64,000 nucleotides of DNA from Escherichia coli (GTDB lineage Bacteria > Pseudomonadota > Gammaproteobacteria > Enterobacterales > Enterobacteriaceae). Numbering within the stretch: the first letter of the stretch is position 1; the number at the start of each line of letters is the position of its first letter. A program made the position numbers and the translations under genes. The stretch lies in NCBI RefSeq assembly GCF_048403405.1, contig NZ_CP183129.1; one strand, given 5' to 3'. Of this stretch, positions 50,624 through 51,714 are shown piece by piece. Below the pieces are notes generated by a model. That model did no database searches, was not told the DNA's origin, and saw nothing but the letters and a program-made list of their open reading frames with translations.

Positions 50624-50805
50624 AAAAAAACTCCCTGTTGAAGAATGGAAATTGGTTGATATCTAATTGTGCTTATCAGTGCTTTGTGCGACAAATTGGT
50701 TAACCTGTCTGACAACTTGTCTATGTTTATCACAACTTGAAATAAAGTCAGAAATTAAATATTAATTTTGTGCGCCAGGTTGTACATGTTGGTAATGACT
50801 CCAAC

Positions 50806-51309
50806 TTACTGATAGTGTTTTATGTTCAGATAATGCCCGATGACCTTGTCATGCAGCTCCACCGATTTTGAGAACGACAGTGACTTCCGTCCCAGCCTTG
50901 CCAGATGTTGTCTCAGATTCAGGTTATGCCGCTCAATTCGCTGAGTGTAACGCTTGCTGATTACGTGCAGCTTTCCCTTCAGGCGGGATTCATACAGCGG
51001 CCAGCCATCCGTCATCCATACCACGACCTCAAAGGCCGACAGCAGGCTTAGAAGACGCTCCAGTGTGGCCAGAGTGCGTTCACCGAATACGTGCGCAACA
51101 ACCGTCTTCCGGAGCCTGTCATACGCGTAAAACAGCCAGCGCTGGCGCGATTTAGCCCCGACGTATCCCCACTGTTCGTCCATTTCCGCGCAGACGATGA
51201 CGTCACTGCCCGGCTGTATGCGCGAGGTTACCGACTGCGGCCTGAGTTTTTTAAATGGCGGAAAATCGTGTTGAGGCCAACGCCCATAATGCGGGCGGTT
51301 GCCCGGCAT
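50806..51309 (-). CDS. insB: IS1 InsB (expressed as InsAB' by frameshift)
   Basis: 167 aa, overlaps insA in -1 frame as in IS1. Confidence 0.9.
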
Positions 51310-51503
51310 CCAACGCCATTCATGGCCATATCAATGATTTTCTGGTGCGTACCGGGTTGAGAAGCGGTGTAAGTGAACTGCAGTTGCCATGTTTTACGGC
51401 AGTGAGAGCAGAGATAGCGCTGATGTCCGGCGGTGCTTTTGCCGTTACGCACCACCCCGTCAGTAGCTGAACAGGAGGGACAGCTGATAGAAACAGAAGC
51501 CAC
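51228..51503 (-). CDS. insA: IS1 InsA
   Basis: 91 aa, zinc-finger CPSCS...CSHC, sequence recognised. Confidence 0.9.
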
Positions 51504-51714
51504 TGGAGCACCTCAAAAACACCATCATACACTAAATCAGTAAGTTGGCAGCATCACCGTACATGTTTATAATCAATAAATGATGAGTAAATATTCAGTA
51601 AATATATATAATAAATATCGTCGATATTTATTCAGTAAGAAATATATTTTTGCCGAAGTTAATTAACGGGGGGGTTAAAAGAAGTGATTAATGCGCCCGC
51701 AGGCGCATTAATGA

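Follow-up and report, generated by a model that had tools for sequence, protein, structure and literature searches.

The DNA analyzed here, a 64,000-nucleotide stretch of an Escherichia coli genome (referred to below as the window), carries a complete IS1 in the spacer between hemW and an accessory TRAP transporter operon. It is a simple, lineage-restricted IS1 insertion, a strain-specific polymorphism of a known kind, and the insertion itself was already known: the RefSeq annotations of MS 69-1 and B19695 both show this IS1 at this position and note a "programmed frameshift" for its transposase. The explanation that we regard as probable overall is that of an ordinary IS1 insertion that would be near-neutral for the TRAP operon and that brought with it a candidate antisense hybrid promoter on the hemW side. 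The element and the duplication that frames it are laid out as follows:

50782-50790: target-site duplication, TRAP-side copy, GTACATGTT
50791-51558, minus strand: complete IS1 of 768 bp, delimited by sequence and by a repeat finder
50791-50813, minus strand: right inverted repeat of IS1 (IRR), on the TRAP-operon side, GGTAATGACTCCAACTTACTGAT
50806-51503, minus strand: InsAB' transposase coding span, a 232-aa fusion via a predicted -1 frameshift
50806-51309, minus strand: insB' frame, overlapping insA
51228-51503, minus strand: insA, 91 aa with a GTG start, with zinc-ribbon and HTH domains
51246-51252, minus strand: A6C (AAAAAAC) motif for the programmed -1 frameshift from insA to insB'
51551 to 51524, minus strand: promoter-like site of IS1 itself, CTGCCA-16-TATGAT, in the left inverted repeat
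51536-51558, minus strand: left inverted repeat of IS1 (IRL), on the hemW side, complement of GGTGATGCTGCCAACTTACTGAT
51559-51567: target-site duplication, hemW-side copy, GTACATGTT

Membership in the IS1 family was judged by a length of ~768 bp and roughly 23-bp imperfect terminal inverted repeats starting with GGT(G/A)ATG. The element has this length, its inverted repeats are 23 nt long and imperfect, with 19 of the 23 positions matching (83% complementary), and its ends are identical or near-identical to those of K-12 IS1A. A simulated -1 shift at the A6C motif gives a predicted, uninterrupted InsAB' in which all three Pfam IS1 domains score well over their cut-offs (DDE_Tnp_IS1 at 250.6 bits, with a cut-off of 24.1, HTH_Tnp_IS1 at 96.5, and Zn_ribbon_InsA at 69.9), and the two frames cover positions 1-81 and 76-199 of the NCBIfam profile transpos_IS1. 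The transposase is read from the minus strand and is thus co-directional with hemW and the TRAP operon.

This is the single IS1 of the 64-kb window, in which the inverted repeat was found once. Annotated IS1 copies with 100% identity to its DNA occur on many chromosomes and plasmids of E. coli, including resistance plasmids, and those in MS 69-1, B19695, and E01 likewise show no mismatches. The element differs from K-12 IS1A by 28 substitutions in 768 positions (96.4% identity) and from the IS1B-type copy of 21AR0173 by 22, in both cases without indels. Going by its nucleotide sequence, the window IS1 is a distinct and common non-K-12 isoform. The isoform is mobile, since an identical copy was inserted independently 37 bp away in E01.

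The upstream neighbor of the insertion, in the direction of transcription, consists of the following:

51715-52851, minus strand: hemW (radical SAM heme chaperone), intact
51687-51712, minus strand: intrinsic terminator of hemW, a hairpin with a T-run, left intact and lying upstream of IS1 in the direction of transcription

Going downstream from the hemW stop codon (51715), IS1 is reached after 147 nt, past this hairpin; on the other side, the element begins at -168 relative to the A (50623) of the DctP-like ATG. The sequence GTACATGTT directly abuts both ends of the element in perfect 9-bp copies, in keeping with the 8- to 9-bp target duplications of the IS1 family. The 9-mer occurs twice in the 64-kb window, where 0.43 occurrences are expected, and 7 of 100 shuffles reach two; the call of a duplication is nonetheless settled, because the copies sit exactly against both IS ends and genomes with an empty site, holding a single copy of the 9-mer, exist. 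In the nearest relatives, the sequences on either side of the insertion, up to 50790 and from 51568 on in the window, are joined base to base (between 2346874 and 2346875 in TUM14771 and between 4414450 and 4414451 in GN02461), again with one copy of the 9-mer. Thus, the insertion added IS1 and one extra 9-mer and removed nothing.

The exact IS1/flank junction is present in 2 of 5,426 complete E. coli genomes, those of MS 69-1 (USA, colon) and B19695 (Ireland). The TRAP operon is found in 1,461 of the 5,426, and the reconstructed empty site was recovered, at a coverage of 80% or more, in ~1,433. The window equals MS 69-1 from the tRNA-Phe gene (35854) to its right end, except for one SNP at 48638; positions 1-35853 hold an integrative conjugative element, in place of which MS 69-1 carries a pap/hly island. 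B19695 shares only 99.4% identity with the window over the 12 kb to the right of IS1. At least three distinguishable strains therefore carry the insertion, which, though young relative to the species, is not entirely new. The initial annotation, which described an intact IS1 with a perfect 9-bp duplication, placed between hemW and the TRAP operon at 168 bp from the DctP-like start codon, is borne out in each of these respects. Its reading of the event as simple and probably recent is upheld by the restriction of the junction to one lineage and by the comparison that it proposed with strains lacking IS1 at the site.

Taken alone, the insertion carries little weight, as IS1 insertion polymorphisms are abundant in E. 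coli. A complete genome holds a median of 11 copies of IS1, and 113-125 IS1 sites relative to each reference genome were reported in a set of 95 ST131 genomes (PMC8764528). The insertion can nevertheless serve as a clean marker of the lineage of MS 69-1 and B19695, and together with TUM14771 and GN02461 it offers a natural with/without pair for studying the control of an accessory, probably hexuronate-type TRAP transporter. The genes of this transporter are as follows:

47788-50623, minus strand: TRAP transporter operon, three full-length genes
49637-50623, minus strand: dctP-like SBP gene
49089-49601, minus strand: dctQ-like small permease gene
47788-49089, minus strand: dctM-like large permease gene

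The three genes are adjacent on one strand, and all three DctPQM components were recognized, with 286 bits for TIGR00787 dctP (cut-off, 175), 473 bits for TIGR00786 dctM (cut-off, 268), and 106 bits for Pfam DctQ (cut-off, 28). An orthologous operon, with an SBP identity of 84-93%, is found in Citrobacter, Kluyvera, Klebsiella, and Phytobacter directly after yggS-yggT-yggU-rdgB-hemW. The same position across genera indicates that the location of the operon is ancestral, and its absence from ~73% of complete E. coli genomes is presumably due to loss. The O157 locus tags Z4301-4303/ECs3832-3834 were considered as TRAP genes and rejected, Z4302/ECs3833 being ansB.

The best solved relatives of the SBP are 4ovr, 4n15, 4ln5, 4mhf, 4x8r, 4n91, and 4n8y, with E values of 1e-60 to 1e-68. 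Among these, 4N91 and 4MHF are binders of D-glucuronate or of D-glucuronate/D-galacturonate, and 4N15 was the template used for STM3169, the glucuronate-binding protein of Salmonella (PMC7660916). The ligand contacts of the glucuronate binders, in STM3169 numbering, are Arg150, Arg170, Asn210, Asn35, Gln36, Glu74, and Asp237 (PMC7660916); alignments with 4mhf and 4n15 show that five of the seven equivalents are kept in the SBP (N36, R151, R171, N211, and D238), while Leu37 and Ala75 stand at the equivalents of Gln36 and Glu74. Homologues with 60% identity to the SBP in Aeromonas and Pantoea sp. IMH sit between the genes for glucuronate isomerase and tagaturonate reductase (uxaC-uxaB) and exuR. 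The operon of E. coli and its closest relatives stands alone after hemW, with no hexuronate genes beside it, and no Salmonella locus was found among the 44 close relatives, so that orthology to STM3169 is not established. Of the two substrate classes offered by the initial annotation, C4-dicarboxylates and sugar acids, the structural relatives and the neighborhoods of the homologues speak for the second, which they narrow. Our best guess is that the substrate is most likely a hexuronate-type sugar acid rather than a C4-dicarboxylate.

The consequences of the insertion for the operon depend on what lies between IS1 and the SBP gene. An alignment of the 170 nt upstream of the SBP gene in 27 enterobacterial orthologous loci revealed these features:

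50631-50778, minus strand: conserved upstream control region, contiguous with the TRAP operon
50764-50778 (-155 to -141 from the ATG): block CTGGCGCACAAAATT
50716-50735 (-112 to -93): block TTGTGATAAACATAGACAAG, with an invariant TGTGA inside it (TTGTGA..., CRP-half-site-like)
50704-50716 (-93 to -81): palindrome GTTGTCAGACAGG, TTGTC-N-GACA
50682-50695 (-72 to -59): palindrome TTTGTCGCACAAAG, TGT-N3-ACA
50649-50666 (-43 to -26): block TTAGATATCAACCAATTT, AGATATnnACC
50631-50635 (-12 to -8): RBS, GGGAG

Every upstream block conserved in the 27 loci (-155 to -8) is on the operon side of IS1 (-168), and the duplicated 9-mer begins 3 nt beyond the outermost of them (50782, compared with 50764-50778). 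Because all of the conserved blocks lie between IS1 and the ATG, the core control region probably stayed attached, so that the TRAP operon would keep its own control region. A consensus scan of the empty site for the native TRAP promoter found no minus-strand sigma-70 match better than 8/12; weak matches to the sigma-70 consensus are common for activator-dependent sugar-acid promoters. The alignment suggests a class-II-CRP-type layout for the native promoter in Klebsiella-like sequences, and this candidate was dropped because the -10 is degenerate in E. coli. A UxuR/ExuR operator at 50694-50711 (AGACAGGTTAACCAATTT), which resembles an E. coli uxuR-promoter site, AAATTGGTATACCAATTT, at 13 of 18 positions (PMC8092373), was likewise left as unproven, the match not being conserved at that position in other genera. 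A search of the empty-site locus against Rfam returned no relevant RNA family.

What IS1 did move is the distal part of the spacer. About 113 bp of native DNA with a GC content of 29%, extending from the hemW terminator to the insertion point, were displaced by 777 bp. The spacer as a whole has a GC content of 29-33%, compared with 44% for the TRAP operon and 52% for the window, and in the 27-locus alignment the insertion point falls in a semi-conserved AT-rich stretch that aligns with AATAAATATAAC in other genera. Displacement of this DNA could mean the loss of an UP-like, curvature, or H-NS-related contribution.

The two ends of IS1 differ in what they offer to their flanks. At the IRR end, a relaxed scan found no promoter better than 8/12 reading out toward the TRAP operon, and the -35-like hexamer TTGGAG in IRR has no -10 at a usable spacing, so that an outward promoter at this junction was rejected. 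At the IRL end, the insertion made the following site:

51545-51573, plus strand: hybrid promoter-like site TTGGCA-17-TATAAT, an 11/12 match to sigma-70

Its -35 (TTGGCA, 51545-51550) is in IRL, its -10 (TATAAT, 51568-51573) is in the native flank, and the 17-nt spacer consists of 8 nt of the IS end and the 9-nt duplication. It is the only sigma-70 match of at least 11/12 on either strand of the whole 64-kb window, whereas the empty site has only TTGTGC-17-TATAAT (9/12) at this position. The arrangement is that of an IS1 hybrid promoter, with an outward -35 in the inverted repeat, a spacer within the range of 16-18 nt, and a -10 in the flank. As described in PMC8764528 (citing Prentki et al. 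1986) and PMC9330008, the inverted repeat of IS1 contains an outward -35, and a hybrid promoter arises only if a -10 is present at the right distance. The present site is oriented away from the TRAP operon; a transcript from it would cross the terminator of hemW and enter the 3' end of the gene in antisense. Two regulatory effects had been suggested in the initial annotation, and neither fares well: separation of the operon from its native promoter appears unlikely given the position of the conserved blocks, and for the supply of an outward promoter to the operon there is no usable candidate, the strong promoter-like site being at the opposite end and pointing away.

We propose that the ancestor of a small E. 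coli lineage, which would comprise MS 69-1, B19695, and the window strain, acquired a complete IS1, predicted to be competent for transposition, through the staggered 9-bp cut that is usual for this element. The target would have been the AT-rich DNA that separates the hemW terminator from the control region of the accessory operon. Judging from conservation, the effect on the TRAP operon was probably neutral or nearly so, because the conserved blocks and the RBS are still attached, the hemW terminator would already insulate the spacer from upstream transcription, and the IS end that faces the operon appears to lack a usable promoter. The most concrete regulatory by-product would be the near-consensus candidate promoter, whose transcript would pass through the hemW terminator and run antisense to the 3' end of hemW.

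A stronger version of the last point holds that the hybrid promoter has a relevant effect on hemW, with antisense transcription passing through the terminator into yggS-yggT-yggU-rdgB-hemW, all of which are on the same strand, and acting by interference or as antisense RNA. The site is the best sigma-70 match of the window, the empty site reaches only 9/12 at the same place, no plus-strand terminator-like site was found between it and hemW, and hybrid promoters built on the outward -35 of IS1 have been documented experimentally (PMC8764528, PMC9330008). However, a match to the consensus is not activity, and the flank is extremely AT-rich, a setting in which promoter-like hexamers are common and are often covered by H-NS. 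In addition, hemW is intact and encodes the same protein in both of the IS1-bearing complete genomes, and the other two IS1 sites of the spacer, described below, form no equivalent, properly spaced promoter, for which reason the hybrid site looks like a chance by-product. We therefore consider a relevant effect on hemW unlikely.

It is quite unlikely, in our judgment, that the insertion lowers expression of the TRAP operon by detaching some element upstream of -168, be it a distal promoter, an UP element, or a site for an activator. Such a loss would fit with the finding that no convincing core promoter was recognized in the retained 167 nt and with the position of the insertion in the stretch that aligns with the semi-conserved AT-rich DNA of other genera, and IS1 upstream of osmB cut the transcript about 4-fold in ST131 (PMC8764528). 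However, the CRP-half-site-like TGTGA block and the two palindromes of the TGT-N3-ACA kind, which are typical of the control of sugar-acid operons, are downstream of the insertion. The three transporter genes also retain their full length and do not differ from the alleles found in empty-site genomes (the proteins of the SBP and the small permease, for example, are identical to those of MRSN346647, which has the empty site), with no sign of decay, although this would be expected as well if the insertion is young. Across three ST131 genes with IS1 upstream of them, expression was raised, lowered, or left unchanged (PMC8764528).

Other insertions in the same spacer bear on whether this one could have been selected. 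In E01, the identical isoform (0/768 mismatches) sits 37 bp farther away from the operon between copies of the duplication CACTAAATA. In 21AR0173, AREA_492, and FDAARGOS_536, an IS1B-type copy (22 mismatches) flanked by the 8-bp duplication CGCCCGCA lies within the loop of the terminator hairpin of hemW. In UID2404240038, a rearrangement associated with ISEc23 is present and the SBP gene is frameshifted. The 314-bp spacer has thus received IS1 at three independent sites and ISEc23 at one. All three IS1 events have the same orientation, with insAB' directed toward the TRAP operon, which could hint at selection; the chance probability is 0.25 (n = 3). By rough arithmetic, about 6 genome-copies were observed where roughly 1 would be expected under uniform placement. 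Enrichment as evidence of selection was rejected, as this mild excess is compatible with a preference for AT-rich DNA and with dispensability of the spacer.

We regard it as very unlikely that the insertion is adaptive and raises TRAP expression, whether by displacing an AT-rich silencer or through IS1 transcription that reads through IRR. The low GC content of the spacer and of the operon relative to the window is a composition typical of silenced DNA, the spacer has been hit repeatedly by IS elements, with the IS1 copies co-oriented toward the operon, and IS1 insertions can raise downstream expression (PMC8764528). Against this, an IS1 anywhere in the spacer is present in only 6 of the ~1,441 genomes that have the spacer, which is weak for a selected change, and the same orientation in three events arises by chance with the probability given above. 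A promoter better than 8/12 is absent from the IRR junction at all three IS1 sites. Classically, IS1 exerts polar effects in either orientation, and the promoter of the element is a weak one that InsA represses. Moreover, IS1 is known to prefer AT-rich targets (Zerbib et al. 1985, as cited in PMC9330008).

The most far-reaching reading joins these elements: the spacer would be a recurrent, orientation-biased target, and its IS1 insertions would have been selected in gut and extraintestinal lineages because they rewire the expression of a high-affinity hexuronate transporter through the detachment of an AT-rich silencer, and, at the present site, also add a strong antisense promoter directed into the hemW operon. 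If true, this would be a natural bgl-like case of IS-mediated regulatory evolution of a system for the uptake of host nutrients; we hold it to be highly improbable. An assembly artefact, in which an IS1 copy was collapsed or misplaced into the hemW-TRAP spacer, can be practically dismissed: multicopy elements such as IS1, with its median of 11 places per genome, are a common cause of misassembly, but both junctions, with identical 9-bp duplications, recur in the complete genomes of a US and an Irish strain, which were sequenced independently, and the flanks join perfectly in TUM14771 and GN02461.

The ordinary, near-neutral insertion that we favor can be placed next to several known systems. 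The element agrees with the K-12 IS1A reference of the IS1 family in its 768-bp length, in the same 23-nt imperfect inverted repeats, in insA and insB' joined by A6C, in a 232-aa InsAB' with Zn-ribbon, HTH, and DDE domains, and in a 9-bp duplication of an AT-rich target, and it differs from that reference by the 28 substitutions that mark it as a separate isoform. The transporter resembles the hexuronate TRAP transporters (STM3169-3171 of Salmonella and the 4N91/4MHF/4N15 cluster) in the best solved relatives of its SBP and in five contact residues. It differs from STM3169 in having Leu37 and Ala75 at the positions of Gln36 and Glu74, and its specificity may differ as well.

In the cryptic bgl operon, insertions of IS1 or IS5 into an AT-rich upstream silencer bring about activation. 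The present site shares with bgl and with IS5-fucAO (PMC11894529) an IS in an AT-rich region ~100-200 bp upstream of a sugar operon and the recurrence of insertions. It differs from them in the rarity of these insertions (6/~1,441 genomes), and a silent operon or its activation would here be an analogy only.

The closest parallel for the hemW side is given by the IS1 fusion promoters of bla-TEM (Prentki et al. 1986), acrEF, and afaA in ST131 (PMC8764528, PMC9330008), which likewise combine an outward -35 in the inverted repeat with a -10 in the flank, here at a spacing of 17 nt. Whereas the documented fusion promoters drive a downstream gene, the candidate described here faces the convergent 3' end of hemW, where only antisense RNA would be possible. 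It is a textbook-quality case in which the end of IS1 has come to lie at perfect spacing from a native TATAAT, and, as such, it could help in asking whether accidental antisense promoters fire in the chromosome.

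Strain E01 also carries an IS1 copy between hemW and the TRAP operon, and it is the same isoform as the window copy, with 0 mismatches over 768 bp. It is an independent insertion, lying 37 bp farther from the TRAP operon, and its junction at the left inverted repeat gives TTGGCA-19-TATAAT, a promoter-like arrangement with suboptimal spacing. Features of the intergenic region are as follows, with coordinates referring to the window unless a locus is named.

50682-50716: two conserved palindromes of the GntR/FadR-operator type, TTGTCAGACA and TGTCGCACA, upstream of the TRAP operon
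L002 2638-3405: IS1 in strain E01, with target duplication CACTAAATA
L003, L007, and L008 2734-3501: IS1B-type copy in strains 21AR0173, AREA_492, and FDAARGOS_536

The IS1B-type copy has entered the hairpin loop of the intrinsic terminator of hemW (window equivalent, ~51695 to 51702), where it is flanked by the 8-bp duplication CGCCCGCA in all three strains. Because the insertion divides the terminator, hemW transcription may read through into IS1 in these strains. The FDAARGOS_536 copy is 766 bp long, and its transposase is annotated as frameshifted.

A different element, the IS66-family ISEc23, breaks the spacer in strain UID2404240038 at approximately position 100 of the empty-site query (the reconstructed IS1-free locus), and an inovirus Gp2-family gene is found beyond it in place of hemW. 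The TRAP substrate-binding protein gene of this strain is annotated as frameshifted, and thus the operon there appears to be undergoing decay.

Counterparts of the two palindromes in other genera are TGTC-N-GACA and TGTCATACA. The E. coli TRAP operon has no adjacent regulator gene; ExuR/UxuR is a candidate trans-acting regulator for these sites solely on the analogy of the loci in Aeromonas and Pantoea.

Two complete genomes that share the exact IS1 junction of the window, B19695 and MS 69-1, differ from each other in the large-permease gene, where position 48638 is G in the window and B19695 and A in MS 69-1. This is a single difference, and the RefSeq proteins differ in line with it (WP_000378958.1 versus WP_000378957.1). 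B19695 is identical to the window over 48191 to 53390, but identity across 51568 to 64000 is only 99.4%, a pattern implying that a recombination tract has a boundary somewhere rightward of 53390.

The left part of the window is occupied by an integrative conjugative element (ICE), with the following features.

1-35853: ICE, inserted at tRNA-Phe
3256-3399 and 29784-29855: sets of tandem 36-bp palindrome units
24029-24176 and 26465-26612: 148-nt direct repeat, copies 99% identical
35854-35929: tRNA-Phe, the insertion site

Annotated genes of the ICE include those for a TIGR03752-family ICE protein, traD, traG, a conjugative ATPase, and the trimeric autotransporter adhesin taaP. Each 36-bp unit contains a palindrome of the GTGTTTCCAGTGGAAAC type; one set is immediately 5' of a 742-amino-acid open reading frame (ORF) (3321 to 5549) and the second is immediately 5' of a 347-amino-acid ORF (29858 to 30901), and the units look like iterated protein-binding sites. 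The copies of the 148-nt repeat bound a segment of ~2.4 kb containing two ORFs (24690 to 25733 and 25669 to 26352), which may represent a small nested mobile unit or recombination module.

Among 5,426 complete E. coli genomes, only 26 contain the first 24 kb of the ICE at a coverage of at least 80%. In MS 69-1, tRNA-Phe is instead occupied by a pap/hly pathogenicity island, whereas the core part is otherwise identical to that of the window.
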